NCBI GenBank assembly: GCA_043718735.1
Contig: JAYSVC010000011.1
Span: 1-58,514 of the forward strand
Length of the DNA stretch: 58,514 nt
Direction: 5' to 3'
Origin: a bacterium
GTDB taxonomy: Bacteria; Patescibacteriota; Minisyncoccia; Phycocordibacterales; UBA5272
A program made the translations under genes and the position numbers. The notes beneath the pieces are model-generated. The model saw nothing but the letters and a program-made list of their open reading frames with translations, was not told where the DNA came from and made no database searches. This document shows positions 40,622 to 58,514 of the stretch, one piece after another (the stretch's first letter is position 1; each line of letters begins with the position of its first letter).

Positions 40622-40647
40622 TTCAAATTATTTTAAAAATAGAAACA

Positions 40648-40656: not shown

Positions 40657-40674
40657 ACACCTAAGAGAATTTTT

Positions 40675-41784
40675 ATGGTAAAGAAAATAATTAAAAAAGA
40701 GACTATAAAGAAACCAACTATTTCCAAAATGGAAACAGTTGGAGTTGTTGCAAAAAATGCAACAGTTCAAAATGGAAACAAAAGCAATATGCAAAAAATG
40801 CACATACCACTTAAAACTCAGAAACCTGTTATATTTCAAGCTAAAAACGGAGCGATAGAGCTACGTGGTGATATAGCAAAAGAGACTTTGTGGGCAACAC
40901 GTATGCAAATGGCTGAAATTTTTGAAGTAAATCCACAAGCAATATCTAAGCATTTGTTAAATATATACAAAGATGGTGAATTAGATAGGCAGGCAACTAG
41001 TTCCAAAATGGAACTAGTTCAAAATGAGAAGGGTAGAATCGTAAAACGTTCTATAGATATTTATAATTTAGACATGTTGATATCCGTCGGATATAGGATT
41101 AATTCTCTTATGGGAACAAATTTTCGTAAATGGGCTACAAAAACTTTAAAAGATCATATAACAAAAGGCTACACTTTAAATAAAAAGGTCATAGCTAAAA
41201 ATTATAATGAATTTTTATCTGCCGTAAATGAAATAAAAGCATTACTACCTGAGGGTAATTTTTCTGATATAAAAAATGTATTAGATCTGGTTAATGCCTT
41301 TGCAGGCACTTGGCTTACTCTTGACTCATATGATAAAGAAAATTTTACCAAAACCAAAACTACAAGAAAGAAAATTAACTTAACTGCGGGTGAGTTAACT
41401 TCTGCATTGCTAGAATTAAAAAATGACTTGATTAAAAAAGGTGAGGCGACAGAAATATTTGCCATAGATAGAAATAAAGAAAGTTTAGAAGGTATAATAG
41501 GTAATGTTATGCAATCATTTTCTGGTAAAGATCTTTATATTAGTATAGAGGAAAAAGCAGTGCATTTATTATACTTTATAGTTAAGAATCATCCATTTAT
41601 TGACGGGAATAAGAGAAGCGGTGCTTTTTCTTTTATATGGTTTTTGAATAAGTATAAATTATTAGATAAAGAAAAAATATCTCCAGAAGCTTTGGCTGCT
41701 ATTACTCTTTTAATTGCAGAAAGCGACCCAGCACATAAGGAGAAAATAACTAAGCTAGTAACTAGTTTAATAAGTAAAAAATAA
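40675..41784 (+). CDS. RhuM-family N-terminal domain fused to a Doc-type Fic domain
   Basis: RhuM-like block LWATRMQMAEIF...ISKHL.NIY..GEL......SKMELVQ.E..R.V.R....YNLDMLISVGYRINS..GT.FRKWAT. The Fic core is HPFIDGNKR (41590-41616), the Doc-like GNKR variant. Confidence 0.7.
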   Translation: MVKKIIKKETIKKPTISKMETVGVVAKNATVQNGNKSNMQKMHIPLKTQKPVIFQAKNGAIELRGDIAKETLWATRMQMAEIFEVNPQAISKHLLNIYKDGELDRQATSSKMELVQNEKGRIVKRSIDIYNLDMLISVGYRINSLMGTNFRKWATKTLKDHITKGYTLNKKVIAKNYNEFLSAVNEIKALLPEGNFSDIKNVLDLVNAFAGTWLTLDSYDKENFTKTKTTRKKINLTAGELTSALLELKNDLIKKGEATEIFAIDRNKESLEGIIGNVMQSFSGKDLYISIEEKAVHLLYFIVKNHPFIDGNKRSGAFSFIWFLNKYKLLDKEKISPEALAAITLLIAESDPAHKEKITKLVTSLISKK

Positions 41785-44700: not shown

Positions 44701-45309
44701 TCAGGTATTAAAAATTTAAATATTTATATAGAAGATTTAAAAAGTAGAAATGGAAATACAAAAGATGGAAGGCTCGGTATAAAAGAAAGTGATATGGTTG
44801 AAGTAAACTTTCTAAATGAAGGAGTGTGTATCGGTGAGGCTCATGCTACTGGGAAAATAGACAAGATGAGTTTTGATGGAGAAAGTATAAAAGTAACAGA
44901 CTTTAAAACAGGGAAAAGTTTTGAAGATTGGGGAGATGGATCTGGTTATGATAAAGTAAAATTACATTTTAATCAGTATCAGCTCGCTTATTATTATCTA
45001 TTAATTAAAAATAGTAGAACTTATCAAAATTATAAAGTAGAGTATGGTTACATAGAATTCTTAGAATTAGATGACAATAAAAAGATAAATATTCTAGAAT
45101 TAAAATTAGATGAAGAGCTAATAAGTAGGGTGGAAAGGTTGACAAATATTATTTATCAAAAAGTTATGAATCTTGATTTTCCTGACACTGCAAAATATAA
45201 GTTAAAGAATAATAAAAGTGAAGTAGAGGAAAATTATGAAGAAAAAAGTGAGGTTACTTTGAAAGATATATTAAGATTTGAAGATGATTTGCTAAATGGT
45301 GAGATATAA
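41791..45309 (+). CDS. AddA-like UvrD/Rep-family helicase with a C-terminal RecB-type PD-(D/E)XK nuclease
   Basis: Walker A AGPGSGKTE and motif II MIDEFQDTN. The C-terminal nuclease has GKIDKMSF...IKVTDFKTGK...QYQLAYYY. It starts 6 nt after the RhuM-Doc stop. Confidence 0.85.
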   Translation: MQNQTQNQIKNINDQRFEDRYESLNDMQKKAVDNIDGPLLVVAGPGSGKTELLSLRTANILKVSQVSPNNILLLTFTDSGAHNMRERLVGLIGEAGYKVAVYTFHSFASDIMGRYAEHFFDGANFRPATDIERINILENILNELPRDAKLNSKHPEMGYTYLSDIVSCISALKKGNLNADEWRNKINILEKEFERVNSVVTEKLLEIKGKSKYDVLLPAYTSIYEDLNTLAEENNIAKYLVNTLALELKQSIETGKTSNLTDFKNEYFVFEDGTEKFILKNSQKDKIRKWLELADVCEKYNTQMNKLGLYDFDDMIFKVGRELEKNNTLRNELEEKYQYIMIDEFQDTNDAQFALVKNLTSNKINEGRPNVMAVGDDQAIFKFQGAELDNINKFINSFVDVELVTLDKNYRSTQNILDHSRSLITKVEDRLEVRYAGKINKKIIASNKKLLEEQEGKIIEKSFENIHSEMDYICTEIKNILMNGVNANEISIISRTHINLKSLVEIMNQYQIPFSYEKKENVFEKQPIKELINIVSFVSNGFDGSSDYLLPEIMSYKFWNINRLDIWNIAEKVKEGEVSVGDVGEKIYKRLSWLTVMSKSDNVEIKNIASFLIELISDAKSMPLPHLIDKIIGTNEWEINGEHDDDFSEEKKLNYKSLFRSYYFGKDNFDHNKPEYLEFLFALRTFMGALREYRSGEVLYAKDLEEFINIYNNNQNLTLKLSSPFATSSEAVVLQTAHKSKGLEYEYVFIINSDEDEWNGRKRSNKIGMPMNLKLLPSNDELSDRTRLYYVAMTRAKHTLYITHNNEKFSALFSDEQNEKNKLEKLEAKKQKALLKKEGKGNSDIEKSSLSKELVNSLYVKPTQILLQDEKILLKRLLENYKMPVTHLINYLNIGKVGPEKFIEQNLLKFPQAMSPSSVYGSAMHAAMQNYYLYFKKYQKLASNEKLIEYFTNALSAGTMTKIDYDKYLESGIKNLNIYIEDLKSRNGNTKDGRLGIKESDMVEVNFLNEGVCIGEAHATGKIDKMSFDGESIKVTDFKTGKSFEDWGDGSGYDKVKLHFNQYQLAYYYLLIKNSRTYQNYKVEYGYIEFLELDDNKKINILELKLDEELISRVERLTNIIYQKVMNLDFPDTAKYKLKNNKSEVEENYEEKSEVTLKDILRFEDDLLNGEI

Positions 45310-45347
45310 AAACTAAAGTTTTCGTTATTGATAATATCTGTATATTT

Positions 45348-45356
45348 TGTTATACT
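45348..45356 (+). promoter_or_regulatory. Extended -10-like box TGTTATACT
   Basis: It lies inside the over-long ORF call 45328.., which supports the Met at 45409 (GGAG upstream). Confidence 0.4.
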
Positions 45357-45408
45357 AAAAATAGGTCTAGCTTTCTGCAAAACCATTCACAAATTTTTGG
45401 AGATCTTT

Positions 45409-45840
45409 ATGAATTTACTAGCTCTTTTATTCAACCCTAAAAATTGGTCAGTACTTTTTAAGTTAATTGTAGTGTTTTTTAAAACATTGCCAATGATACT
45501 TAAGATTATGTTGATTAGTTATCAACTGAAAAGAACAATCAGGAAAATCTCTCAGCAACAAAAACCAAAAAAGGTTATTGTTGTTAAATCAGAGACATCT
45601 GCGTTGGAATATTTTCAAGCCATTTTGCAAATGATTTCCTTTGGCATCTGCACATTATTTTTGATGTTCAGTTTTGAATTTTCAAAGATCATGGTCCCTG
45701 TGGTTGGAGAATACTTCTTTATACTTTCTTTGTTTTGCGCTTTGATTGGTGCAGTTTTTAATGGGTATTTACTGGATGTATTTTTCTATCCACGTAAACC
45801 AAAACCAACTCATTCTTTTTCTGTGTCGCAGCTCAGTTGA
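45409..45840 (+). CDS. Small multi-pass membrane protein
   Basis: Trimmed to an SD-preceded Met. It has 3-4 hydrophobic helices, a TGA stop, and a terminator-like hairpin CCCCTGA...TCAAGGGG downstream. Confidence 0.5.
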   Translation: MNLLALLFNPKNWSVLFKLIVVFFKTLPMILKIMLISYQLKRTIRKISQQQKPKKVIVVKSETSALEYFQAILQMISFGICTLFLMFSFEFSKIMVPVVGEYFFILSLFCALIGAVFNGYLLDVFFYPRKPKPTHSFSVSQLS

Positions 45841-45915
45841 TTTGTAAATAGTCAAATAAAATAAATGCCCCTGATTTTATATCAAGGGGTATTTTTATAT
45901 TTTAGAATTATTTTG

Positions 45916-45924
45916 TGGTATAAT
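45916..45924 (+). promoter_or_regulatory. Extended -10 box TGGTATAAT
   Basis: Same 16-mer TTTTGTGGTATAATAT as at 35861-35876. Confidence 0.5.
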
Positions 45925-45950
45925 ATTTATTAGAAAGATACTCTATTTAT

Positions 45951-46919
45951 ATGATTAATAAGCAAGATAAATACAAAGCAATATGGATGTCGCACAGTAG
46001 TATGGGTGACTGGGAAAAGTGTCACAGATTATATTATCTTCATAATATATATAAAAATAAAGACAATAAAAAGATAAATATAACGAGTCCCTACATGTCG
46101 CTCGGTATCGCCGTGCATAATGTTGTAGAAGCGCTGAAGACTTTGAAATCAGAAGATAGAAAAAAAATCTTAGAAGATAAAAATGAATTTACAGGTGAGG
46201 AGAAGTTAATAGAAAACTTTAATATAGAGTGGGAAAAGTATGTAGGGAAAGTGGGAGGATTTAAAAGTGAAGAAGAGAGGAATGAATTCAAAAGTAGAGG
46301 AGTGGCAATGCTTGAGAATGTAATCAGAGATCCGAAAATGCTTTTGAATAAGACAATCTCAACTAGAAGTTATTATGATGGTGATATGTTGCCTAATTAT
46401 TATATCAGTGAAGCTGAGAATATTATACTTTGTGGTAATGTTGACTGGATAGAATACATGGACCCAGATGAAGTTAATAAAAATGGATCATTAAAAGTAA
46501 TAGATTTTAAAACAGGGAAGAATGAAGAAAAAGAGAATAGCCCTCAACTTTTTGTATATAAATTTTTAATAGAAAAGCTAGGATGTAAATGGCCGGTTAC
46601 AGCAGGCGCTTATTGGTATTTTGAAAATGGGTCTGTAATAGAAAAAAATATTTTAGACAATGAGTTTATAAAAAACTTAGAAGAGAAAATAATAAAGACC
46701 GGAGTAGAGATTAGGGATATGAGGTATGAGTGGAGTAGTAATGCAAGATTTGGTAGAGCAGGTTGGTTAGAGAAAAAAGACTTTGCAAATAATTTTTTAT
46801 GCACCTCAACTTCTCAATTTTGCGATTGTAAAAAGTATGAATTAATAATTAATAATGACCCAAGCGTAGAATATGTTGGAGTTGATATGTATGGTAAGGA
46901 CTCGTATTTTATAAATTAA
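45951..46919 (+). CDS. Cas4/AddB-like PD-(D/E)XK nuclease
   Basis: GNVDWIEY...LKVIDFKTGK...QLFVYKFL nuclease motifs. One N-terminal Cys (WEKCHRLYY) plus a C-terminal CTSTSQFCDC cluster suggest an Fe-S site. Confidence 0.7.
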   Translation: MINKQDKYKAIWMSHSSMGDWEKCHRLYYLHNIYKNKDNKKINITSPYMSLGIAVHNVVEALKTLKSEDRKKILEDKNEFTGEEKLIENFNIEWEKYVGKVGGFKSEEERNEFKSRGVAMLENVIRDPKMLLNKTISTRSYYDGDMLPNYYISEAENIILCGNVDWIEYMDPDEVNKNGSLKVIDFKTGKNEEKENSPQLFVYKFLIEKLGCKWPVTAGAYWYFENGSVIEKNILDNEFIKNLEEKIIKTGVEIRDMRYEWSSNARFGRAGWLEKKDFANNFLCTSTSQFCDCKKYELIINNDPSVEYVGVDMYGKDSYFIN

Positions 46920-47000
46920 AAAAATATAATAATCTAAAATAAACAAAATAAAAAGCGTCATTAATTAAAAATTAACAACGCTTGTTTTGGTTTTTTGTAC

Positions 47001-47534
47001 TTAATTTAATGCCATAGGTTTTAAAATCTCTAGAGTATTCTCTTCTTTCTTTTCATATTTTTTCCTCTTCGGAGGTTCTTCATTTAAAGCTAACCATATA
47101 AAACCAGTAGCAGCTGATAAAAAAAGACTTGAAACAAATAATATATGAAAGCTAGCATTTGAATCATTTGATATCAATAAAGTTAAGACAATCAGAGATT
47201 CAAGTATTCTGCACCAGCCATTTATTTTCATTAAATATTTTAAGGGTTCTGATTTTAAACCCCTTAACCTTAAAAATACATATCTGAATATAAGTAAAAA
47301 AAGAAATATACCAATTGCTTGATAGTTTTTTCCCTGCAAAAGAAGGATGTAACTACCGTAAAGAAATAATGGTGACATTGCAATTAGAAATAAGTCAGTC
47401 TGCTTCCATCCCTTCTTATCACGAAGATAATAACCCAGATCTTCTATTTTTTCATAAATGAAATTAACTGGGAAAAATACAAAGTCAAAAATCATTTTTA
47501 ACTTTAAATACAATGAGCGAAAATTTTCAAACAT
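47001..47534 (-). CDS. Multi-pass membrane protein
   Basis: Trimmed to the Met preceded by AAGGAG. It has 4-5 hydrophobic helices. Confidence 0.5.
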   Translation of the reverse strand: MFENFRSLYLKLKMIFDFVFFPVNFIYEKIEDLGYYLRDKKGWKQTDLFLIAMSPLFLYGSYILLLQGKNYQAIGIFLFLLIFRYVFLRLRGLKSEPLKYLMKINGWCRILESLIVLTLLISNDSNASFHILFVSSLFLSAATGFIWLALNEEPPKRKKYEKKEENTLEILKPMALN

Positions 47535-47608
47535 CTTGAACTCCTTAGTTGTATGTTTACTTGGTAAGAATAACACATATATTACATATGTGCAAGTGTA
47601 ATTAAAAA

Positions 47609-47878
47609 TTACCTCTCCCTCATTTCTCTTGGATTCGCTACGGAAATGTATAGATCTTCTACTTGTTTTCTGGCCCAGTCTGTTTTACGTAAAAATGTAA
47701 GTGAGGATTTTAGACTTGGGTTTTCATTAAAGCATTTGATTTTAATTATTTGCCCCAATCTTTCCCACCCATATTTTGCAAATAAAAACTCCACTACAAA
47801 TTTTAATGTCTTCCCATGTAATGGGTCATTCGGATGACTCTTCGCTAATTCTGTTTTTGTTTCTTCGGTGTTTTTCAT
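47609..47878 (-). CDS. VF530/DUF2132-family small protein
   Basis: DPLHGKTLKFVVEFLFAKYGWERLGQIIKIKCF.NPSLKSSLTFLRKTDWARKQVEDLY matches my recollection of the DUF2132 pattern. Confidence 0.6.
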   Translation of the reverse strand: MKNTEETKTELAKSHPNDPLHGKTLKFVVEFLFAKYGWERLGQIIKIKCFNENPSLKSSLTFLRKTDWARKQVEDLYISVANPREMRER

Positions 47879-47895
47879 ATTTTTATAATAACAAA

Positions 47896-49710
47896 TTACA
47901 ACACCTTAATCAACTTCAAAATATCATAAGTCACATCTTTATAATCCTCTTTCCATTTTTCATGTACAGGTTTTAATTTATCAGCTCCCTTCATATCCTT
48001 TTTGATCTCATCGATTATTTTCTTAGTGATTTTATTTTTCTTTATAAATGTATCTATGTATTCACCAGCAACTTCTAAGACTTTCTCTTTTTCTTCTGAT
48101 TTTAAGTTCTTATCTTCTACTAGGTCACACAGGTGAGTGATTATGGTCTGCATGGTTAATTCCCTCTCTGTAGCTATTTGTTTTAATTCTTTATCTTCTA
48201 ATATCAACTTTAAGGTGATGTGACTGGTTGGAACTTTTGCTTCCAGATTTTTTATGCTAGCTTCTTTTATCTTTAATTCATCGTCTGTCATTGATTTTTC
48301 AAGTCCCCCCATTTTAACCCTTACTAATTTTTGCTTCTCTTCTAAGTCAGCTTTGCTATATTTATGTAGCGCATCCACTGCATTGCTGGACTTTTGTATT
48401 AATCTTTTATTTTCTTCTACTACAAATGGGGCGACCATCAGTGCCTGATTATTGAGTCCAATAACTTTGAGTCCTGACAATGAGCGCACACGTGACAGGG
48501 CAACGTAACCCATACCAAATCCAAATCCTTTACTCAGGTCCACCTCAGCAGCGTCGAGGGTCATGCCTTGAGACTTATGTATTGTTATCGCCCAGGCGAG
48601 ACGTAGTGGGATTTGAGTCACTTCAGCGAGTATTTTATCATCGTCACTTTTTATCTGCCACACATCGGGAACTACATTTATTTTCTCTTTATCTTTTGCA
48701 TCATTACCAAGTGTCTCGACTATTGGCATGTTATCCTTGTCAAAACCAATCACAACACCTAGCGTTCCATTTTGGTATTTGCCACTTTTGTCATTCTTGA
48801 TAAACATTACTTTTGTATCTGTTTTTAATTTTAATACTTCACTAGTTAATATATTAGCTTTTAGATTATCTACGAGTTGCTTTTTTCCGACACTGGTCAT
48901 GATGTATTCGCACTCTTCAACTTTACTTTTATGCCTTTCTTCTAGGTTGTCATGTAATGTCTTGTATTTCTCTAGATTTATGATATCTACATTTTCATTA
49001 TGGGTAAAAAGTTTTATAGCGTCATCTAAAACATTTTCTGTAGTGTTCTGCAATGCTTCTAATGAGTCATATATATCCTCATCAGCATTACGGATGGCAT
49101 TTAGGATACTGGTTAGGGTATTATCTTCTTGTCTGTAATTCTGAGTTAGATAACATATTACTGGTTTTGCATTTAGCCAGGCTGGACTGTTGAATGCGTA
49201 TTCATTTATAATGTTGACTGACCTATCACGCACTACTGGTGGTAATTGGAAAAAGTCACCACAGAAAATAACTTGTAATCCTCCAAAAGGTTTATTTGCA
49301 TTCTTATTATCTTGTAGAGCTCTCATGTGTTTTGATATTCTATCTAACATGTCTAACTTGCTGGCGTGCAACATTGAGACTTCGTCTATTATGAGGACTT
49401 GAGTATTTAGGTATCTCTTCACCAGCTTCTCATTATCGCTCATATTATCCAGATCCCAGTCGCCTATTCTATCTTTTACTCCGATACCAGACCAAGCGTG
49501 CAGGGTGGTGCCTCCTATGTGCGTAGCTGCGATACCAGTGCTGGCTGTCACTGCATGAGGTATGTTGTGATGTTTTAGATAATCTATGAACATATTCAAA
49601 ACATATGTCTTTCCAGTACCCGCTGAACCTGTCAAAAAGGTTGTATGACCTAGTTTTAAAATGTTTATCGCTTCTTCTTGAGACATGTAATTGTGTTTTT
49701 TCTTGTACAT
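47896..49710 (-). CDS. PIF1/RecD-family (SF1B) helicase with a C-terminal HTH domain
   Basis: Walker A GSAGTGKT, Walker B VLIIDEVSML, the late motif TIHKSQGMT, and a C-terminal helical repeat with QIATERELTMQTIITHL. The promoter position makes the second Met (49686) the likelier start. Confidence 0.85.
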   Translation of the reverse strand: MYKKKHNYMSQEEAINILKLGHTTFLTGSAGTGKTYVLNMFIDYLKHHNIPHAVTASTGIAATHIGGTTLHAWSGIGVKDRIGDWDLDNMSDNEKLVKRYLNTQVLIIDEVSMLHASKLDMLDRISKHMRALQDNKNANKPFGGLQVIFCGDFFQLPPVVRDRSVNIINEYAFNSPAWLNAKPVICYLTQNYRQEDNTLTSILNAIRNADEDIYDSLEALQNTTENVLDDAIKLFTHNENVDIINLEKYKTLHDNLEERHKSKVEECEYIMTSVGKKQLVDNLKANILTSEVLKLKTDTKVMFIKNDKSGKYQNGTLGVVIGFDKDNMPIVETLGNDAKDKEKINVVPDVWQIKSDDDKILAEVTQIPLRLAWAITIHKSQGMTLDAAEVDLSKGFGFGMGYVALSRVRSLSGLKVIGLNNQALMVAPFVVEENKRLIQKSSNAVDALHKYSKADLEEKQKLVRVKMGGLEKSMTDDELKIKEASIKNLEAKVPTSHITLKLILEDKELKQIATERELTMQTIITHLCDLVEDKNLKSEEKEKVLEVAGEYIDTFIKKNKITKKIIDEIKKDMKGADKLKPVHEKWKEDYKDVTYDILKLIKVL

Positions 49711-49735
49711 ATTATAACATGTTTTATGTTATAAT
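49711..49735. promoter_or_regulatory. Back-to-back divergent extended -10 boxes
   Basis: ATTATAACA (minus-strand TGTTATAAT, 49711-49719) and TGTTATAAT (49727-49735) form an inverted pair 7 nt apart. Confidence 0.55.
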
Positions 49736-49742
49736 ATGTTAA

Positions 49743-50159
49743 ATGAAAAATATTATAAATAGTGCAAAATTAGAATATAAAGAAATAGATAAAGTTATCT
49801 GTCCTTATCTAGAAAAAGAAGTATGTTTTACTTCTGCTGGTTTTAAACATTTAATATGGAAATCAGAAATGGGAATGAGACCTACAAGTGAAATAAAAGA
49901 AAGATTAGAAGCTATTAAATACATTAAAATAATAATAGAAAAATCAGGAACTTTACAGGAAATAGAAAAATTAGAAGATAAAATATTTTATGCATTTATT
50001 GCTATCGTGAAAGAAAAGAAATATAAAGTAGTTGTTTCAACTACAAAAGATGGTCGCATAATTTTTAACTCCATAATACCAAAATGGATTACTGGAAAGA
50101 GGGATAAATTGAATACCAATGAAACAAAAAATCCGTCCGTGAGGACAGATATTTTGTAG
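49743..50159 (+). CDS. Hypothetical protein
   Basis: 138 aa with a leaderless-type spacing of 7 nt from the -10. FTSAGFKHLIWK is faintly reminiscent of small RelE/Barnase-like nuclease folds; not assignable. Confidence 0.45.
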   Translation: MKNIINSAKLEYKEIDKVICPYLEKEVCFTSAGFKHLIWKSEMGMRPTSEIKERLEAIKYIKIIIEKSGTLQEIEKLEDKIFYAFIAIVKEKKYKVVVSTTKDGRIIFNSIIPKWITGKRDKLNTNETKNPSVRTDIL

Positions 50160-50236
50160 TGCTTGCTTTCAGCTTGAGAGCCGACGCAGAGCAAAGCTCC
50201 ACAAGCACAAATACATTATACTTTAATCAAAAAAAT

Positions 50237-51586
50237 ATGTCAAATAAAAATAATCACTACAGTACAATAATTATAGGGGGTGGAGCGTCGGGTATTATGG
50301 CGGCTATTTGTGCTGCAGAAAGCGGTAGTAAAAAAGTATTGATTATAGAAAAAAATAATGAAATGGGTAAGAAATTAAAAATCACTGGTGGAGGTAGATG
50401 TAATATATTAAATGCAGAATATGATACAGAAAAATTACTTACTAATTATGTAGGGTCTAAAAAGTATTTACATACTCCATTTTCAAAATTTGGAGTAAAA
50501 GAAAGTGTAGAGTTTTTCAAAAATATCGGTATAGAAATAAAAATAGAAGATAGGAAGAGAGCTTTTCCGAAATCAGAAAAAGCGATAGATGTTTTTAACG
50601 CAATGTTAACAAAAATAGAAAGCTTTAAAAATGAAGATGGGAGCAAGGTAATAGAAATAAAATTAAATACAAAAATAGAAAATTTTTCTCTAGCTCAAAA
50701 CAAAGTAGAATATGTAGAAGTTATAAATAATAAAGGCGAAGCAGAAAAAATCTTTGCTGATAAATTCATAATGAGTGCAGGAGGTATGAGTCATAAAGAA
50801 ACTGGTAGCGATGGTTTTGGTTTTAAGCTTTTAGAAAAGATGGGTATAAAAATAGATGACTTTACGCCCAGTCTCGTTCCTGTTGCTGTTTCTAATAATT
50901 GGGTTAAAAAGTTGAGTGGAAAAAGTATTGAAAACATAAAGTTAACTTTTTATGTTGACGATATAAAAAAGAAAGTTTTAAAATTGAATAAATTAAAAAA
51001 TGAAATAGATACTGATTATGAAAATACTTTAAATACAAACAGGGTACTTTTTACTCATTCAGGACTATCAGGACCTACCATATTAAATAATTCAAAATAT
51101 ATTAGTGACTGGCTACATGAAGGTAAGGTAACAGTTAAAATAGACTTGTTTCCATTTCTCGATGAGAAAGGAGTTGATGATACTCTTTTAAATATTTTTA
51201 ATTATAATAAAAATAAAATGTTAAAAAATGTTTTAAATGATATTTACGTCGGGAATATCTTAGAAGAAATATTTTTAAATAAAGAAAATCCACTTTTTGA
51301 TATTGATTTAGACAAAGAGGTGCATAGTGTTACGAAAAGTGAAAGAAGAAAAATGGTTAATGTTTTTAAAAATCTAGAAATAGAAATAACCTCACTCATG
51401 AGTTATGACAAAGCCATAATCGCGGACGGTGGGGTTAATTCAGATGAAGTTAATTTTGATAATTTTTCTTTGAAAAAAGTTAAGAATCTGCATGTGACGG
51501 GTGATATGCTTAATATATCACGTCCCAGCGGCGGCTACTCACTGCAACTATGCTGGACGACAGGTTACGCCGCTGGGACTAATTAG
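50237..51586 (+). CDS. HI0933/BaiN-like NAD(P)/FAD-dependent oxidoreductase
   Basis: Dinucleotide fold IIIGGGASGIMAA and KITGGGRCN. Trimmed from 50159 because the upstream 78 nt are a GC-rich palindrome. Confidence 0.8.
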   Translation: MSNKNNHYSTIIIGGGASGIMAAICAAESGSKKVLIIEKNNEMGKKLKITGGGRCNILNAEYDTEKLLTNYVGSKKYLHTPFSKFGVKESVEFFKNIGIEIKIEDRKRAFPKSEKAIDVFNAMLTKIESFKNEDGSKVIEIKLNTKIENFSLAQNKVEYVEVINNKGEAEKIFADKFIMSAGGMSHKETGSDGFGFKLLEKMGIKIDDFTPSLVPVAVSNNWVKKLSGKSIENIKLTFYVDDIKKKVLKLNKLKNEIDTDYENTLNTNRVLFTHSGLSGPTILNNSKYISDWLHEGKVTVKIDLFPFLDEKGVDDTLLNIFNYNKNKMLKNVLNDIYVGNILEEIFLNKENPLFDIDLDKEVHSVTKSERRKMVNVFKNLEIEITSLMSYDKAIIADGGVNSDEVNFDNFSLKKVKNLHVTGDMLNISRPSGGYSLQLCWTTGYAAGTN

Positions 51587-51588
51587 TT

Positions 51589-51852
51589 TTATTTTAAATT
51601 ATTTATAATATTTAATTTCTCTTCCCTCGTTAACTTTTTTAGTTCTAATTCACGAGCGCGAGCAAGCTTTAAACTTTCTAGTTCTTCACTGTAAACTAAA
51701 ATAACTGGTCTGCGTATTTTCGTATAATGTGCCCCAGACTTTAAATTATTATGTTGATGCAGTCTCTTTTCTAAGTCATTAGTAGAACCAATGTATAATG
51801 TATCATCTTTGCATTTTAGGATATATGTGTAAGATTTATCATTTTCTTTCAT
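51589..51852 (-). CDS. GIY-YIG nuclease superfamily protein (UPF0213-like)
   Basis: YTYILKCKDDTLYIGSTNDLEKRLHQHN. The minus-strand TGTTATAAT (51867-51859) ends 6 nt from the ATG. Confidence 0.8.
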   Translation of the reverse strand: MKENDKSYTYILKCKDDTLYIGSTNDLEKRLHQHNNLKSGAHYTKIRRPVILVYSEELESLKLARARELELKKLTREEKLNIINNLK

Positions 51853-51900
51853 TTTTATATTATAACAAATTAAATTAGATTTTGGGGAGTTTTTTATTTA

Positions 51901-51909
51901 TGTTATAAT
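51901..51909 (+). promoter_or_regulatory. Extended -10 box TGTTATAAT (aspS)
   Basis: Exact TGnTATAAT. Confidence 0.5.
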
Positions 51910-51945
51910 AGTCGTAACAAATAAAACTTTTATAAATATAAAATT

Positions 51946-53343
51946 ATGAGAACATATATAAAAAATTTAAATCAAAAAGCAGGTGAGACAGTCACAATTA
52001 TGGGCTGGGTTCAGGTGCGTCGCGATCAGGGAAAGATGATATTCCTAGACCTGCGTGATGCGTCAGGTATGGTGCAGGGTGTAATACTACCAAATCACAC
52101 AGAAGCACTAATGGTTGGCAATATATTACGTACTGAGTGGTGTGTGGAGGTGGAGGGAATAGTAAATAAACGTCCAGAAAGAAATATAAAAGTAGGGGTA
52201 GTAAACGGGGATATAGAATTAGAAATTACAAGTATAAAAGTTTTAAACGAATCTGAGACTCCGTATTTTGACCTGACTACAGACGGACATGAAGTTAATG
52301 AAGAGGTTAGATTACGTTATAAATATCTGGACCAAAGAAGAGAGAGAGTGCAAAGAATATTAAAAAACAGAAGTAAAATACAACAACATATTAGAAATTA
52401 TTTTATAAGTGATGATTTTGTAGAAGTAGAGACACCGCTAATGAGCGCCCCAACTCCAGAAGGATCGAGATCATACGTTGTCCCTAGTCGTATATGGAAA
52501 GGTAATTTTTATTCATTACCACAAAGTCCTCAACAGTATAAGCAATTGTTAATGGTTGGTGGCATGGAAAGATATTTTCAATTTGCAAAATGCATGCGTG
52601 ATGAGGATACTCGTGGAGATAGACAGCCTGAGTTCACCCAGTTAGACATAGAAATGTCATTTACGACAGAAGAAGAGATAATGAATATTAATGAAAAACT
52701 TTTAATAGAGCTAGTTACAAAGTTTTACCCAGAGAAAAAAATACAAACCATCCCATTCCCAAAAATGTCTTACAAAGATGCAATGGAAAAATATGGTAAT
52801 GACAGGCCAGATATAAGAGAAGATAAGGAGGATAAAAACCTATTAGCCTTTTTGTGGGTCACAGATTTTCCTGCTTTTGAAAAAACTGGAGAAGATAATC
52901 TTGATGGTACAGGAGAATGGACTTTTACTCATAATCCATTTACTCGTGTACGTGATGAGCACATGAGTGACTACATGGACAAGAAAAATATAGGAGATTT
53001 AATATCTACCCAATATGATATCACTCTTAACGGTTATGAAATAGGCGGTGGGGGATTACGTAGCCACAAGTCTGAAATGTTAAAGAAAACTTTTGAGATA
53101 ATGGGTTACGCAGAAGAAAAGATAGAGAAAATGTTCGGCCACATGATAGAGGCTATGAAGTTCGGTGCTCCACCGCACGGTGGTATTGCTTGGGGTTTTG
53201 ACAGATTTATGATGTTAATGGAAAATGAGCCAAATATACGTGAGGTTATGGCTTTTCCAAAAACAGGAGAAGGTAAAGACCTTATGATGAATGCGCCAGG
53301 AGAGATAAGCGATAAACAAAAAAGAGAATTAGGTATAAAATAA
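51946..53343 (+). CDS. aspS: Aspartyl-tRNA synthetase, bacterial type without the GAD insertion
   Basis: OB-fold N-terminus, SPQQYKQLLM, RDEDTRGDRQPEFTQLDIEMSF and GGIAWGFDRFMML. PDIR is followed almost directly by LWVTDFPAFE. Confidence 0.9.
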   Translation: MRTYIKNLNQKAGETVTIMGWVQVRRDQGKMIFLDLRDASGMVQGVILPNHTEALMVGNILRTEWCVEVEGIVNKRPERNIKVGVVNGDIELEITSIKVLNESETPYFDLTTDGHEVNEEVRLRYKYLDQRRERVQRILKNRSKIQQHIRNYFISDDFVEVETPLMSAPTPEGSRSYVVPSRIWKGNFYSLPQSPQQYKQLLMVGGMERYFQFAKCMRDEDTRGDRQPEFTQLDIEMSFTTEEEIMNINEKLLIELVTKFYPEKKIQTIPFPKMSYKDAMEKYGNDRPDIREDKEDKNLLAFLWVTDFPAFEKTGEDNLDGTGEWTFTHNPFTRVRDEHMSDYMDKKNIGDLISTQYDITLNGYEIGGGGLRSHKSEMLKKTFEIMGYAEEKIEKMFGHMIEAMKFGAPPHGGIAWGFDRFMMLMENEPNIREVMAFPKTGEGKDLMMNAPGEISDKQKRELGIK

Positions 53344-53355
53344 AATAAAAAAAAC

Positions 53356-53724
53356 ATGATAAAAAACTTTTTAATTAACACATTAGCAATTGGGATAGTA
53401 TTTTATATACTGCCAGATACAAATATTACGCCACTTAACATTACAAATATAAATATTTTAGATACAGGCATTAGCTTGTTTATAGTATCACTAATATTAA
53501 CCGCACTTAGCTTAACTGTGAAGCCAGTATTAAAAATAATATCTTTCCCTATTAACTTAGTGACCCTTGGATTATTTTCTTTTGTTATAAATACTGTAAT
53601 TATTGTAATCTTGGATAAAATATCTTCTTCTTTTGAGATTACGGGATTTATAAATTATCTTATCTTTGCAATACTACTTTCACTCGTTGGTATGGGTCTT
53701 AGTATATTTAAAGACAATGATTAA
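53356..53724 (+). CDS. Phage_holin_4_2-family four-TM membrane protein
   Basis: VKPVLKIISFPINLVTLGLFSFVINTVII matches the ...P.l..LslP..ilTlGlf..ViNa pattern. Confidence 0.6.
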   Translation: MIKNFLINTLAIGIVFYILPDTNITPLNITNINILDTGISLFIVSLILTALSLTVKPVLKIISFPINLVTLGLFSFVINTVIIVILDKISSSFEITGFINYLIFAILLSLVGMGLSIFKDND

Positions 53725-53748
53725 AATCACATAAGAACAAAATAAAAA

Positions 53749-53778
53749 ATAGCGAATAATATTCGCTATTTGTTTTTT
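53749..53778. terminator. Bidirectional intrinsic terminator
   Basis: ATAGCGAAT-AAT-ATTCGCTAT hairpin flanked by A- and T-runs. Confidence 0.7.
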
Positions 53779-53784
53779 AAGACC

Positions 53785-54153
53785 CTACTTAGTTTTCTTT
53801 TGTACAAAGCGTTTGATTGCTTTTGCTAGTTTTTGCCTTGGGCTTTTACTTTCTTCTTCAAGTAGTTTTTCTTCGGCCAAAAAATCAGTCACCTTCTTTT
53901 TAAGTAAAGAAGTTTTTAGTATGACCGATATTTCCGCATTCTCACCCTTAAGGTTGAATTGAATATTCGAACTTTTATTTTGCGCTAAAGCCTGAAGCAT
54001 TTGCCACTTTTTCATGGAAAGAGAGTAGTCTAACGCTTTGATTTGAAAGGCCGAGCCATCAAAAGTTATCTCTACTTCACTTTTTTTAAATATACAAATT
54101 AGCGTTCCCAGTAATTTGCTTGTCTTTGTGTCAGTTTTTTTAGAAAGAGCCAT
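53785..54153 (-). CDS. Hypothetical protein
   Basis: 122-aa ORF with a basic C-terminus and no recognisable motif. Confidence 0.45.
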   Translation of the reverse strand: MALSKKTDTKTSKLLGTLICIFKKSEVEITFDGSAFQIKALDYSLSMKKWQMLQALAQNKSSNIQFNLKGENAEISVILKTSLLKKKVTDFLAEEKLLEEESKSPRQKLAKAIKRFVQKKTK

Positions 54154-54228
54154 TTTAAACTTTCGTTTTGTTTTGCCTCATTACTTAATCATTAAAGTAA
54201 CATAGGAGTTCACATAATACTACATTTT

Positions 54229-54756
54229 CTATTTTTTAGCAATAGCCGTATCTTCTTCTAACATTTCTTCAGAAATCTCTTCTACGTCCTCTTGCAACTC
54301 ATCAATGTCCTTTTCTATGTTTTCTACGTCAACACCGATTTCCTCCACATCTTCTTGTATCTCATCAATATCTTCTGAGATTTCTTTTACGTCTCCCTGT
54401 ATCTCATCTATATCTTCTGAGATTTCTTGTACGTCTTCTTGTATTTCGTCGACGTCTTTTTGTATTTCTTCTACGTCAACACCGATTTCTTCCACGTCAT
54501 CACTTAGTTCTTCAATATCTTTTTCTACTATTTCTATAGCTTTTGTATTTTTGTTTACTGACATTTGTATAAAAATAGACAAGTATATAGCCTCAAGAGA
54601 AACTACAGTAGTTAATACTAACAAAGCTTTTTCTACATCTACACCAAAAAAAGTAGAACTAATAACTATAATAAAAAATATAGTGTGTAGTATAAGAGAG
54701 GGTACTGAGCCTATGGAATTAGAGATTTTTAGGGCTTTACTTTCGAGTGATTGCAT
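54229..54756 (-). CDS. DUF1003-like two-TM protein with an acidic heptad-repeat tail
   Basis: The N-terminal TM pair ending LEAIYLSIFIQMSVNKN resembles DUF1003. The C-terminus is 12 x D[VI]xE[IL]xx. Confidence 0.6.
   Translation of the reverse strand: MQSLESKALKISNSIGSVPSLILHTIFFIIVISSTFFGVDVEKALLVLTTVVSLEAIYLSIFIQMSVNKNTKAIEIVEKDIEELSDDVEEIGVDVEEIQKDVDEIQEDVQEISEDIDEIQGDVKEISEDIDEIQEDVEEIGVDVENIEKDIDELQEDVEEISEEMLEEDTAIAKK
54268..54519 (-). repeat. Twelve tandem 21-bp (7-codon) coding repeats
   Basis: DIEELSD DVEEIGV DVEEIQK DVDEIQE DVQEISE DIDEIQG DVKEISE DIDEIQE DVEEIGV DVENIEK DIDELQE DVEEISE. Confidence 0.85.
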
Positions 54757-54838
54757 ACTATACTTATACTATAAATCACTTAAAATTTCAACTAACTTTT
54801 CAAGGGTATTTATAAATTAACTAAAAATAAAAAATTAT

Positions 54839-56062
54839 ATGACAATATTATTAGGATTATTTGCATTCTTTATACCGGCAACTATAGTAGTTGCTGTGGT
54901 TTACTTTCTTATTCGTACAATGCGTGGTGCTATTGTGGGTGATGGGTTAAATGTAAAAGAACTCACTATTGATGGTGGTATTTTTATCACTCTTATTAGT
55001 AGTATAGTTGCTTTGGTATCTATTATCTTTTCAGCTATAGATAAAAAGTTTGTAGATGTATTAAAACAAAATTACTACGCATATCAAGACACTGTGAATG
55101 ATGATGTGCGTGTTGCTGTATCTATTATTTTAATAGCTTATCCAATGTACTTATTATTAGCTTATTACAGGGCAAATTATCTAAAAAATAATCCGAGTAG
55201 AAGAAATATACCTGCAATGAAGTATGTAAATTATGTGATACTTGCTGTAGCCTCACTATTTATTTTGGGGTCACTAGCTACAACTATTTATGAATATCTT
55301 GGTGGTGAACTAGGTGTTGCTTTTGCTTACAAACTTTTGACTGTAATTGCGATTGCTTCTCTTTTAATAGTTTACAATTACTTTACTTTAAAAAGAAATT
55401 ATGACGCAAAATCAAATGCTCCTAATATCTTAGCAGTTATAAGCCTAATAGCTGTTATCTCAGCTGTGGCATATAGTATAAATATATTAGGTTCACCTGC
55501 TCAGGTTAGAAAAACAAAATTTGATGAAAAAAGATTAAGTGACTTATCAAATATACAAAATGAAATCTTAAATTCTTGGACAAGGAATAAAGTGTTGCCT
55601 GCTGACTTAAAATCAATACAAGGAGATGGATTCAATAATGGATTCATAATACCAGTAGACCCCAGAACAAAATTAAGTTACGAATACAAAATAGTTGAAA
55701 TGGGTAAGATGACCAAAAGAATAGGTCAAGACTGTGCTACATATTATCCTAATAAGTTCAATGCTTTTAACAACAATAATGTTTATGATGTTACAAAGCT
55801 GTCTTGTGAGATACCCGGAAAATCAACATTTGAAATATGTGCTAACTTTGAGACTATACGTGCTTATGATGCGAATGGTGTAGAGCAGGTTGGTTGGGAT
55901 TCTTCTAATCCTCTTGGTGTTAAAAGTCTAGACATGGCATCTTCTCGTTATTCTGAAGTTACATACTATGATTCGTATACTAAGAATTCTAACTGGAATC
56001 ATAATGTAGGTAATACATGTTTTAAAAGAACTATTGATCCGTTGAAATACCCTCAGTATTAA
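54839..56062 (+). CDS. Multi-pass membrane protein with a Cys-containing extracytoplasmic C-terminal domain (DUF5671-like)
   Basis: About 6 TM helices followed by a soluble domain with paired Cys residues and a pseudopilin-like LPADL...PVDPRTKLSYEYK segment. Confidence 0.5.
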   Translation: MTILLGLFAFFIPATIVVAVVYFLIRTMRGAIVGDGLNVKELTIDGGIFITLISSIVALVSIIFSAIDKKFVDVLKQNYYAYQDTVNDDVRVAVSIILIAYPMYLLLAYYRANYLKNNPSRRNIPAMKYVNYVILAVASLFILGSLATTIYEYLGGELGVAFAYKLLTVIAIASLLIVYNYFTLKRNYDAKSNAPNILAVISLIAVISAVAYSINILGSPAQVRKTKFDEKRLSDLSNIQNEILNSWTRNKVLPADLKSIQGDGFNNGFIIPVDPRTKLSYEYKIVEMGKMTKRIGQDCATYYPNKFNAFNNNNVYDVTKLSCEIPGKSTFEICANFETIRAYDANGVEQVGWDSSNPLGVKSLDMASSRYSEVTYYDSYTKNSNWNHNVGNTCFKRTIDPLKYPQY

Positions 56063-56071
56063 AATAAAAAT

Positions 56072-56108
56072 AAAATGATGGTGCCGAAGGCACCATCATT
56101 TTATTTTG
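56072..56108 (+). terminator. Intrinsic terminator
   Basis: AAAATGATGGTGCC-GAA-GGCACCATCATTTT followed by a T-run. Confidence 0.75.
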
Positions 56109-56124
56109 TAATAATGAATATTTT

Positions 56125-56133
56125 TGTTATACT
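56125..56133 (+). promoter_or_regulatory. Extended -10-like box TGTTATACT (leuS)
   Basis: TGnTATACT about 20 nt upstream of the ATG at 56153. Confidence 0.45.
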
Positions 56134-56152
56134 TAAAATAAGATAAGCACAT

Positions 56153-58514
56153 ATGAATACAGAAGAAAATACTTTTCCAGAAAATAACAAAGACGAACAA
56201 AGTACAAAACCTAAAAAGTATGTACTGGATATGTTCCCATATCCTAGCGGTGAAGGGCTACATGTTGGTCACCCAAAAGGCTACATAGCAACTGACATAT
56301 ACAGTAGAATGTATAAAATGAAAGGTTATGAAGTGGTGCACCCTATGGGCTGGGATGCTTTTGGACTACCTGCGGAACAGTTTGCATTAAAGAACAAAAC
56401 TCACCCAAAAGCACAGACAGAAAAAAACGTAGCTAATTTTAAATCACAATTAAATAAAATAAATCTTGATTATGATTGGGATAGAGAGATATCAACTACT
56501 GACCCGAAGTTCTACAAGTGGACACAGTGGATATTTAAGCAACTATATAAAAAAGGCCTCGCTTATGAAAGCTTTGAACCGATCAATTGGTGTCCAAGCT
56601 GTAAGACTGGTCTCGCTAACGAAGACTTAGAAGGTAATGCTTGTGAACGCTGTGGGACAATAGTAGAAAAAAAACCACTAAGACAATGGAATCTCCGTAT
56701 TACCGATTATGCAGACAGGTTAATACAAGATCTAGACACTCTCGCTTGGCCGGAGTGGGTAAAAACTGCACAAAAGAATTGGATAGGTCGTAGTGAAGGA
56801 AGTGAAATTGATTTTAAAATAGTCGGAGAAAAAGAAATAAGTTTTTCTGAAGAAAATAATACTGGACTAGTTGGATATGGTACAAATGTAAATATGAATG
56901 TAAAATATTCTTATGAAAATAAGTTCACAGTATTTACAACTCGTGCTGATACGCTTTTTGGTTGCACATATACAGTATTGGCACCAGAACATAAATTAGT
57001 TTTGGAATTATTAGAAGATAGAGACAATCAAAATATTTTACAAAATAAAGAAGAGGTGAAAAAGTATTTAGAAGAAGTAAAGTTAAAAACTGACATAGAG
57101 CGTGGCGCTGAAGGGAAAGAAAAGACAGGAGTTAAGCTAGAGGGTGTTATGGCTATTAACCCAGCTAATCAAAAAGAGGTTCCAGTTTACATCGCAGACT
57201 ACGTCCTCGCTTCATACGGCACTGGTGCAATTATGGCAGTACCAGCTCACGATGAGCGTGATTTTGAATTCGCAAAAAAATATAATATAGAAATACTTGA
57301 TGTAGTCGCTAAATACTTTGAACTTTCTGGAAACGATCAAGAAAGAAAGTGTGTAGAAATTATAAATAGAATAGTAGTAGATCCTATAATAAGAGATAAA
57401 GATAATAATTTTTATCTTATAAAAGAACCTCAAGATAGTGCTATACATTTTGCTGGTGGTGGATTAGATGAAGGTGAGACAGATACAGAAGCAATGAGAA
57501 GAGAGATAAGAGAAGAGTTGGGCTTTACAGATTTTGAAATAGTTAGAAAAATAAATCCACCGCTATCTGTAAGAGGGTATAGGCACACTAAAAATAAAAA
57601 TCAAAGAACTATTGGAACTACCTATGAAGTAGTTTTAAATAGTTTAGAAAGAGTTAGTTCTGAGATAGAAGAAGGTAAACATGAGCTAGTTGTTGTCAAA
57701 AAAGAAGACGTCTTAAAAACTATCACTTGGGAGCATCATAAATTTTTATTTGAAAGATATTTGATTGATGAAAAAGTTTTTTCTGAAAAAGGAATGGTTA
57801 TAAACTCAGATATTTTTAATGGTCTTATGAGCGAAGAAGCAAAGATAAAAATCACAGAATATGTCGGAGGCAAAATAGTGACCAAATATAAACTTCGTGA
57901 TTGGGTATTTGCTCGTCAACGTTATTGGGGTGAGCCATTTCCGGTTGTGTATCCGACAAAAATAAATCCAGACACTGGTGAAGTAGAGAGAGATAATAGC
58001 ATATCGCCGATTATGGTCGCAGATTCAGAGCTTCCAGTCTTATTACCCGAAGTAGAGAGTTATGAGCCAACAGGTACCGGTGAATCGCCACTCGCTATTA
58101 TCGATAGCTTTGTAAATGTGTGTGGCTACTTAAATGAAGAAGGAGAATTTGAAAGTGTAAAAAATTATTTTAGATTTGAAAATAAATTCATACAAGATAT
58201 CTTAAGCTCTACTAAAAATAATACAGTAAGATTAGATAACAAAAATATAAAAACAAACGATATATTAGAGATAAAGGACAAAGATAACAAAAGTTATGGG
58301 TTTATTAAAATAAAAAATATTACAAAGAGAAAATTATTAGAACTAGAAATAAATAATTTAAACGGAACCTCATATCAAAGTAAAGAAGAACAGGTAGAAA
58401 GTTATAAAAAATATTATGGAGAAGATATAAACTTGGAAACTATTTTTTATATTTTTGATTTTGAATTATTTAATAAAAATATAAAACTATTCAAAAGAGA
58501 AACAAACACCATGC
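56153..58514 (+). CDS. leuS: Leucyl-tRNA synthetase (3'-truncated by the window end) with two inserted domains
   Basis: The frame has no stop from 56153 to the window end, so it is absent from the track. It contains [12 protein letters not shown] (HIGH), CPSC...[55 protein letters not shown], and KRETNTM at the window edge. Confidence 0.92.
57296..57775 (+). other. Nudix hydrolase domain inserted in leuS
   Basis: Nudix box [23 protein letters not shown] at 57458-57526 fits GX5EX7REUXEEXGU exactly. Confidence 0.8.
58166..58472 (+). other. ASCH/PUA-like domain inserted in leuS
   Basis: [22 protein letters not shown]...NDILEIKD...[15 protein letters not shown]...[29 protein letters not shown] parallels the YqfB-type ASCH pattern as I recall it. 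Confidence 0.55.

Follow-up and report, generated by a model that had tools for sequence, protein, structure and literature searches.

The leucyl-tRNA synthetase (LeuRS) gene at the end of a patescibacterial stretch of DNA (GenBank assembly GCA_043718735.1, contig JAYSVC010000011.1; "the window" below means the whole stretch analysed, 58,514 nucleotides) encodes an enzyme with a second, unrelated domain inserted shortly before its RETNTM motif. Profile matches and a predicted structure show this insert to be a complete, folded ASCH domain of the clade of YqfB, the N4-acetylcytidine (ac4C) amidohydrolase of Escherichia coli. The same models show it to be nested in the module known as CP3 or 'Zn2', whose last beta-hairpin carries it at its tip, just before the KRETNTM strand. 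We found no description in the literature of an ASCH domain together with LeuRS, of a Nudix domain together with LeuRS or in Patescibacteria, or of LeuRS insertions in the Candidate Phyla Radiation, and the word 'synthetase' is absent from a preprint on EOLA1 that surveys ASCH architectures (10.64898/2026.08.01.741249). Since the component families are all known, the arrangement represents a new architecture of known kinds and not a new kind. A class Ia synthetase with an unrelated small catalytic domain has a precedent in the NCBIfam family ileS_w_GNAT, an isoleucyl-tRNA synthetase (IleRS) with an N-acetyltransferase domain, by analogy only: both synthetase and added domain are different, and the window LeuRS scores 45.5 bits against that model (cut-off 1999) through the shared catalytic core alone. 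The gene, the insert and the domain have the following coordinates.

56153..58514, plus strand: leuS, bacterial-type leucyl-tRNA synthetase, first 787 codons, cut by the window end (open reading frame translation)
58151..58483, plus strand: inserted segment relative to the LeuRS P0001, residues 667-777, 111 residues replacing a 10-residue loop (segment comparison, codon alignment)
58163..58477, plus strand: ASCH domain of the YqfB (Gly-Lys-Thr-Arg) clade, residues 671-775 (Pfam, family profile, PDB profile, structure prediction, Foldseek)

The insert is an ASCH domain

The original prediction, made from the letters of the sequence, was that about 105 extra residues at 58110-58480 form an ASCH/PUA-like module before KRETNTM. 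Its coordinates proved accurate to within a few codons, and the motif strings it named are all present in the translation. The identification is borne out at the level of both profile and fold. When the 143 residues containing the insert were excised, Pfam family PF04266 (ASCH) matched over profile positions 3-100 of 103 with 31.0 bits (E 4.4e-7; cut-off 21.2), and it still scored 26.3 bits when the whole LeuRS of the window was scanned; the score of the domain against the family hidden Markov model (HMM) was 108.7 bits. A profile built from A1, an alignment of 33 ASCH homologues, matched E. coli YqfB end to end in the PDB (9KYF, E 3.4e-10; 1TE7, E 1.6e-9), and hhalign aligned the five LeuRS-borne copies described below with YqfB over 97 columns. 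A profile was needed for significance, the single-sequence phmmer search of the PDB reaching YqfB at E 0.13. AlphaFold2 (AF2) modelled the domain alone with a predicted local distance difference test score (pLDDT) of 85.5 and a predicted template-modelling score of 0.74, and the pLDDT was 90-96 over the domain when the LeuRS flanks were included. The top matches of the model among PDB structures searched with Foldseek were YqfB with and without ac4C (9KYF and 9KYH; TM score 0.73-0.74, E approximately 1e-6), and the top 20 were all ASCH-superfamily proteins or structural-genomics proteins of the same fold, with probability 1.00. The predicted structure is thus a PUA-like beta-barrel.

YqfB (PDB 1TE7, 9KYF-9KYH) has the same fold, is collinear with the domain over its approximately 103 residues and shares with it the Lys-x-x-Thr-x-Arg motif and a C-terminal tyrosine, so that the parallel drawn in the original prediction is real; sequence identity is approximately 23%, and YqfB is free-standing whereas the window domain is nested in another enzyme. 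A HMMER search of 1.84 billion representative proteins returned 54 at E <= 1e-3, nearly all of them free-standing proteins of 105-116 residues aligned over their full length. The closest free-living relatives are stand-alone ASCH proteins from metagenomes (P0122, P0123, P0125 and others, approximately 105-116 residues), which are 29-36% identical to the window domain over their full length and share its K..T.R and YYG motifs; no stand-alone relative more than 36% identical was returned. No NCBIfam model matched the insert. An intein or other self-splicing element was considered and rejected, there being no Hint/intein Pfam match even at E values up to 10, the junctions reading ES/VKNY and NKNI/KLF, and the fold being that of ASCH.

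The host enzyme

The LeuRS gene is one open frame of 787 codons (window 56153-58513, plus strand) which runs past the window end. The truncated protein nevertheless scores 567.7 bits against TIGR00396 (leuS_bact; cut-off 548.4), Pfam detects in it both the class I core and the editing domain of LeuRS (PF13603, 190.9 bits), HVGH lies at residues 37-40, and the editing-site motifs TTRADTLFG and AVPAHDERD are present. The remainder of the gene could be followed on L003, a Logan contig from run SRR23617204 that is 100% identical to window positions 44839-58514 (13,676 bp); it possibly derives from the same source as the window, and so may not be an independent confirmation. L003 carries the frame on to residue 1062, through PQWAGSSWYY, GGDHATRH and KMSKR and the anticodon-binding and C-terminal domains, approximately 20 final residues being absent. 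The original prediction had allowed for further additions beyond the window end; none was found between residues 788 and 1062. With HVGH, KMSKR, the editing-site motifs and the anticodon-binding and C-terminal domains all retained, this should by its sequence still be the working LeuRS of the cell.

The extension (L003:11315-14500, LeuRS residues 788-1062) is without the leucine-specific domain (…LGFILAEDGRKMSKRWGN…), as in the LeuRS of Mycoplasma mobile, which is also its best match in the PDB. Several relatives (P0001, P0002, P0005 and P0013) have an extra, variable insert of 10-40 residues before VDVYVGGDHA that the window LeuRS is without.

Place of the insertion in the LeuRS fold

In the window LeuRS, GESPLA begins at residue 643, 139 residues ahead of RETNTM (residue 782). 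Among the 120 LeuRSs closest to it in a large protein search, both motifs could be located in 113, and 98 of these have a spacing of 19-54 residues. The most direct comparison is with P0001, the syntenic orthologue (approximately 80% identical, with the same upstream DUF5671 gene, as seen on contig L006), which lacks the insert. The segment also has no counterpart in experimental structures: the M. mobile LeuRS (3ZIU) has none to residues 653-771, its chain passing from residue 300 to 303, and that of Neisseria gonorrhoeae (7NTY) has a gap at the insertion (chain 486 to 499); no LeuRS-specific subdomain of these solved structures aligns with the segment. The limbs of the hairpin that carries it are as follows.

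58115..58156, plus strand: outgoing limb of the CP3/'Zn2'-equivalent hairpin, residues 655-668, with no zinc ligands; AF2 strands at residues 655-660 and 666-668
58484..58513, plus strand: return limb of the hairpin and re-entry to the Rossmann fold, residues 778-787; AF2 strand at residues 778-783 (KLFKRE)

In class Ia synthetases, CP3 denotes the stretch from the RDWxxSRxRYWG linker to the return into the Rossmann fold, as described for the Saccharomyces cerevisiae IleRS (PMC7955072), and in bacterial LeuRS this stretch has been named the zinc-binding 'Zn2' domain (PMC9424281). The N. gonorrhoeae Zn2 and S. cerevisiae CP3 modules occupy the same chain position as the module of the window, with the difference that the second hairpin of the latter bears a 105-residue enzyme domain at its tip. 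The short, often cysteine-knuckled segment named in the original prediction is this module, so that the insert is nested inside a known subdomain and does not lie between subdomains. The module itself has a single cysteine, no paired Cys-x-x-Cys knuckles and no zinc ligands, whereas the relatives P0009, P0076 and P0124 keep HC..(C/D)G and CP.CGGP, with TTCP[TK]CGGPA[KM]RET[ND]TM at the position of the ligand-free hairpin in P0009 and P0124. The return-limb motif RETNTMPQWAGSSWYY is invariant among relatives. In an AF2 model of the domain in context (residues 553-787), a 2-residue link leads into ASCH strand 1 (residues 671-674), and the last ASCH strand (residues 764-772) is followed by a link of 5 residues. 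With such short linkers the ASCH is, in this model, a nested domain and not a loosely tethered appendage. In a figure superposing catalytic states of LeuRS, Zn2 is, like the aminoacylation, CP2, anticodon-binding and C-terminal domains, drawn as a surface (PMC9424281), which we take to mean that the Zn2 region stays fixed through the catalytic cycle.

Active-site residues

Residues of the domain that bear on its possible activity fall into three elements.

58214..58231, plus strand: active-site motif K688-N-N-T691-V-R693, equivalent to Lys21/Thr24/Arg26 of YqfB
58361..58393, plus strand: signature of the LeuRS-resident ASCH lineage (NGTSY.SKEEQ), replacing the G-H-E-x-Y loop of stand-alone relatives
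58412..58417, plus strand: Y754-Y755 (YYG motif), the probable equivalent of YqfB Tyr89, aligned with D-I-Y-P-G of YqfB

Two clades of ASCH proteins have been distinguished, a Thr-type one with YqfB ('GKTR') and a Glu-type one with TRIP4/EOLA1 ('GKER') (10.64898/2026.02.27.708502, 10.64898/2026.08.01.741249). The window domain has the octapeptide G-x-K-x-x-[T/S]-x-R in its Thr-type form, S-T-K688-N-N-T691-V-R693, the glycine being replaced by serine here and kept in two other LeuRS-borne copies, those of L001 and P0062. The lysine and threonine are invariant and the arginine nearly so among the 33 sequences of A1, in which the tyrosine of the YYG motif (Y95 of the alignment) is also nearly invariant; all four residues are invariant in the five LeuRS-borne copies. 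In YqfB the residues corresponding to the lysine, threonine and arginine are essential, the K21A, T24A and R26A mutants being inactive (PMC6972931), and the acetyl group of ac4C lies in the K21/T24/R26 pocket of the YqfB complex (10.64898/2026.08.01.741249). YqfB Tyr89 mutants lose activity approximately 3-fold or more; replacement of Glu74 by alanine lowers kcat approximately 1000-fold, and His70 and Tyr89 contribute less (PMC6972931).

The region of YqfB His70 and Glu74 is where the domains differ. MAFFT, HMMER and hhalign gave three different registers for it. Instead of the G-H-E-x-Y loop of the stand-alone relatives, the LeuRS-resident lineage has G-T-[ST]-Y, one residue shorter and followed by S-K-E-[ED]-Q, and the signature residues G, T, Y, S, K, E and Q do not vary among the copies at the window's site. 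In addition, no equivalent of YqfB Asp27 could be identified, the aspartate found there being shifted by one position (R-L-D). By its sequence, catalytic competence of the domain is likely rather than established, and its substrate may have shifted.

Distribution and exchange of LeuRS inserts

As the original prediction had proposed, other LeuRSs were surveyed for this insertion, the census resting on the top 120 LeuRS matches and one pattern scan of species-representative genomes. The scan, which covered one genome per GTDB species, found the same ASCH insertion in only two genomes: L001, a metagenome-assembled genome (MAG) of Ca. Nomurabacteria whose 1212-residue LeuRS has two Nudix domains besides the ASCH, and L002, a MAG of Ca. 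Paceibacterota encoding the same protein as P0048. Together with P0050, P0062 and the window this makes five carriers, i.e. four other LeuRSs, with identical junction positions. None of the 330 pattern matches that the insert alignment produced in JGI metagenomes was confirmed, and word-indexed searches with the insert or the five-sequence alignment returned nothing even though P0048, P0050 and P0062 are in the collection, which marks the sensitivity limit of the index.

The CP3 loop, here called site C, is one of several positions at which LeuRSs carry cargo. Inserts of at least 60 residues are present at site C in 17 of 123 LeuRSs including that of the window: five are ASCH domains, one is a methyltransferase and 11 are of Nudix size, the Nudix identity being confirmed by Pfam in P0007, P0011, P0046 and P0111. 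Site A lies where the editing domain starts, just behind GxSEGxExxF; 19 of the 123 have such an insert there, and the cargo includes Nudix, HAD, Ham1, alpha/beta hydrolase, DUF559 endonuclease and ASCH domains. Site B, within the editing domain, holds a Nudix domain in most of the 123. The window LeuRS has this one too, in keeping with the Nudix insertion claimed in the original prediction.

57371..57742, plus strand: first insertion, Nudix domain in the C-terminal part of the editing domain, residues 407-530 (PF00293, 40-44 bits)

Its Nudix box, read from the translation, is intact. The domain is 85% identical to that of P0001, 60% to that of P0011 and 26% to that of P0005, although the core LeuRS regions of P0005 are 82-89% identical to those of the window; from these identities the Nudix insert, too, seems to have been swapped between LeuRS alleles, giving a mosaic. 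Site A of the window LeuRS (56816-56926, residues 222-258) has approximately 36 residues, as in its close relatives, compared with 7-10 in most LeuRSs. In P0040, P0044 and P0051, site A carries an in-frame DUF559 (Vsr-like endonuclease) domain scoring 104 bits, and such cargo, unusual in a synthetase, may be linked to how LeuRS inserts move.

Simple vertical inheritance of the ASCH insert was rejected. In neighbour-joining trees built on modest alignments, the LeuRS core of the window groups with P0001, P0002, P0005, P0006 and P0013, all without the insert, and the remaining four carriers are placed away from it, closest to LeuRSs that have Nudix at the same site or nothing (P0043). P0117 and P0111, with Nudix at the ASCH site, are 92% identical in the core to L001, and P0011, also with Nudix, is 90% identical to P0062. 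The borders of these swaps are exact, GEFES[IV] preceding the insert and [IK]K[LKF]F[KR]RETNTM following it. By these comparisons the insertion is patchy and exchangeable with Nudix or methyltransferase at the same site, and appears as no fixed trait of a lineage. Codon alignments (L001:1694-5332 with L005:1501-5010, and L003 with L006) show raised synonymous identity over the 30 codons 3′ of swapped inserts (0.93 vs approximately 0.7, and 0.81 vs approximately 0.62), a weak hint of recent recombination at the insert junctions.

ASCH domains were also found at site A, at approximately residues 241-346, in P0113, P0016 and P0124 when an HMM based on A1 was used. Two of these belong with the copies at site C: P0113 and P0016 share NGTSY.SK[ED]EQ and match the window copy at 43-49% identity, the level seen between site-C copies, among which they fall on the ASCH tree with moderate support for the joint clade (108 of 200 bootstrap replicates; a clade of site-C copies alone was recovered in 17 of 200). 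The ASCH of P0124 groups instead with the free-standing G-H-E proteins (183 of 200), which points to a separate capture. The trees thus indicate that ASCH domains entered LeuRS at least twice, and one ASCH lineage appears to have moved between two LeuRS loops. P0124 stands for 246 sequences clustered at 90% identity; in its 916-residue LeuRS (L004:3001-5751) site A holds the G-H-E-type ASCH, the Zn2 knuckle is intact and a Nudix insert is lacking. The cluster is found on contigs of up to 174 kb from many sources, indicating an abundant organism, which is perhaps the most accessible experimental system.

The window ASCH shares 41-50% identity with the remaining LeuRS-borne copies and is in this comparison as conserved as the editing (45-52%) and anticodon-binding (38-49%) domains of the same proteins. 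Relative to the catalytic core the ASCH evolves much faster, P0048 and P0050 being 95% identical in the core and 65% in the ASCH. Approximately 30 positions besides the active site are nevertheless invariant across the copies, whose hosts have 60-75% core identity. Base composition sets the insert apart from its host gene: in the window its GC content is 18.5% compared with 36-40% for the LeuRS core, and 14.5% compared with 27-29% at third codon positions. Each of the four carriers checked has an ASCH insert richer in AT than its host gene, third codon positions included (GC of insert vs host gene 21 vs 33-36% in L001, 27 vs 41-46% in L002 and 43 vs 49% in L004), which could reflect either foreign origin or relaxed constraint.

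Proposed function and alternative explanations

From the conserved residues and the company that the domain keeps, we favour, with confidence only slightly above even, the reading that the ASCH module is a competent N4-acylcytidine amidohydrolase tethered to LeuRS and serving pyrimidine salvage or clean-up. Lys688, Thr691 and Arg693 would act like Lys21, Thr24 and Arg26 of YqfB and strip the N4-acyl group from ac4C or from a related cytosine nucleoside or nucleotide acylated at N4, and cytidine would thereby be returned to the salvage pool. LeuRS would mainly be a carrier that is stable and constitutively expressed, with slots in two or three surface loops for interchangeable nucleotide house-cleaning domains across lineages of Paceibacteria; the cargo of these slots would comprise Nudix, ASCH, HAD and Ham1 domains, and also the alpha/beta hydrolase and the methyltransferase. 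Nudix, HAD and Ham1 proteins are classic nucleotide house-cleaning enzymes. Patescibacteria are usually seen as reduced symbionts, and the importance given here to salvage rests on that view. The ASCH might cooperate with the Nudix of the same polypeptide on modified pyrimidine nucleotides: the pairing of a Nudix in the editing-domain loop with an ASCH in the CP3 loop recurs in a free-standing Nudix-ASCH fusion (P0132), which together with an ASCH-HAD fusion (P0166) is found among the stand-alone relatives, so that the fusion partners of stand-alone ASCH proteins also occur as LeuRS inserts. N4-acetylation blocks cytidine deaminase (10.64898/2026.08.01.741249), and deacetylation would therefore be the entry step to salvage.

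Several points weigh against this reading. No counterpart of YqfB His70 or Glu74 could be identified in the domain, whose loop ahead of the last helix has 5 extra residues, and, given the importance of Glu74 in YqfB, the replacement of G-H-E by G-T-S in the LeuRS-resident copies may mean that their chemistry or substrate differs from that of YqfB. The insert is dispensable, being absent from the nearest orthologues, and its low GC content together with its composition (54% K/N/I/Y/F) could reflect relaxed constraint. A role for LeuRS as pure carrier leaves unexplained why ASCH domains entered it at least twice, at two sites, and the other three synthetases of the window carry no extra domains. 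Finally, no ac4C-writing enzyme was seen in the scanned parts of the window.

It could also be that the ASCH works in cis on the tRNA bound by LeuRS, either erasing an N4-acyl mark on tRNA-Leu or reading its modification state, and so coupling modification to charging; we think this unlikely, though it is the chief rival to the salvage reading. All 19 ASCH proteins tested in one study, those of YqfB type included, are reported to lower tRNA ac4C (2026 preprint, 10.64898/2026.02.27.708502). In eukaryotes, ac4C12 is specific to tRNA-Leu and tRNA-Ser, and its loss lowers charging (PMC12215905). The capture of ASCH by LeuRS on at least two occasions, with one lineage in either of two loops, suggests that attachment to LeuRS itself was selected, all the more as repeated capture concerns LeuRS in particular, and the short linkers of the model would hold the domain in a fixed position on a tRNA-binding enzyme. 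However, the reported site of ac4C in bacteria is mainly position 34 of elongator tRNA-Met, and none is known in bacterial tRNA-Leu. The lack of a writing enzyme in the scanned parts of the window counts here too, YqfB is reported to be without intrinsic RNA binding, and the net charge of the LeuRS-borne ASCH domains, -4 to +3, is not consistently basic. A second preprint holds that free ac4C is the physiological substrate of the fold, as paired ac4C is inaccessible (10.64898/2026.08.01.741249). Moreover, near-identical LeuRSs hold Nudix or methyltransferase in the same slot, which fits a generic slot better than a device specific to tRNA-Leu. A further form of the proposal, in which the LeuRS-resident lineage removes or senses N4-acyl cytidine in cis, be it ac4C in tRNA-Leu or CCA cytidines adventitiously N4-aminoacylated by leucyl-adenylate, with the LeuRS of Paceibacteria as a scaffold of exchangeable slots for enzymes that repair RNA and nucleotides, seems to us unlikely. 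If a cis-acting ASCH did exist, it would couple tRNA modification or repair directly to charging. The two 2026 preprints disagree on whether ASCH/YqfB-type enzymes act on tRNA or only on free ac4C, and an ASCH fused by linkers of 2 and 5 residues into a tRNA-binding enzyme amounts to a natural experiment on this dispute.

Quite unlikely, in our estimation, is a non-catalytic appendage, i.e. a structural module or one that binds RNA, a nucleotide or a protein partner, which would replace the lost zinc knuckle. Such a role would be in line with the loss of cysteines from the Zn2 module of the window LeuRS, with the change from G-H-E to G-T-S in every LeuRS-resident copy of the lineage, and with the fact that ASCH/PUA-like folds are often binding modules, the ASCH of TRIP4 binding nucleic acid. 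However, orthologues cope with a 10-residue loop, so that no structural replacement is needed, and the strict retention of the lysine, threonine, arginine and YYG tyrosine in LeuRS-resident copies of 40-67% overall identity would be unexpected for a structural role.

We judge it very unlikely that the domain is a passenger cassette, shuffled among LeuRS alleles by recombination into a permissive loop with little or no benefit. The patchy distribution and the exact junctions at which Nudix takes its place in LeuRSs of 90-92% core identity are what such a cassette would leave behind, and the AT-richness of the inserts, the raised synonymous identity just 3′ of them and the in-frame DUF559 endonucleases of other LeuRSs point the same way. 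The invariance of the active site and of approximately 30 further positions in hosts that have diverged this far argues otherwise, and where the genome is streamlined and the enzyme essential, a neutral insert would be expected to decay or vanish fast; nor did repeats, inteins or homing machinery turn up around the window copy, although no dedicated search was made. An artefact (assembly chimera, contig mis-join or frameshift), for which nothing was found beyond the caution invited by a window cut inside the gene, has a negligible probability, as the frame is continuous over both junctions, the gene continues normally on the 100% identical L003, and four other assemblies, each of a different source, contain homologous insertions that share these junctions.

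If the ASCH is indeed, as we favour, a plain salvage enzyme riding on LeuRS, it would be a modest but real addition to synthetase architectures. More generally, the inserts present, within one bacterial group, a class Ia synthetase as a scaffold three of whose surface loops hold varied enzyme domains, with swaps between enzymes more than 90% identical in the core, a pattern of which the literature searched gave no description. This bears on nucleotide salvage in ultra-small episymbiotic bacteria, and on which loops of LeuRS can accept a large insert, a matter of use in engineering.

Other features of the window

The window encodes three further synthetases, SerRS (6392-7660, 423 residues), a class II enzyme with an HGTP anticodon domain (28167-29639, 491 residues) and AspRS/AsnRS (51946-53343, 465 residues). 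All are of ordinary size and have no extra Pfam domains; judged from the synthetases of the window, the carrying of cargo domains seems specific to LeuRS.

An AbiEii-type nucleotidyltransferase toxin domain of a type IV toxin-antitoxin system is encoded amid housekeeping genes at 19925-20554. An apparent defence island at 35883-41781 comprises an EcoRI-type adenine methyltransferase, an AAA_15/AAA_21 ATPase, Bro-N, GmrSD-N with an HNH endonuclease, and RhuM/Fic, and is followed at 41791-46916 by an AddAB-like pair, made up of a 1172-residue helicase of UvrD type that includes a PD-(D/E)XK nuclease domain, and of a second protein with a PD-(D/E)XK domain. On the minus strand at 54229-54756 lies the gene for a 175-residue protein in which an N-terminal hydrophobic segment precedes a tandem repeat of highly acidic character (…D[VI][DE]EI[QG].DV.EI…) and which has no Pfam match; the antisense open reading frame at 54305-54820 is probably spurious. 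Also on the minus strand, at approximately 51589-51852 (L003:6751-7014), the gene for an 87-residue GIY-YIG nuclease lies between those for an FAD-dependent oxidoreductase and AspRS/AsnRS, and this protein could be a free-standing homing-type endonuclease.

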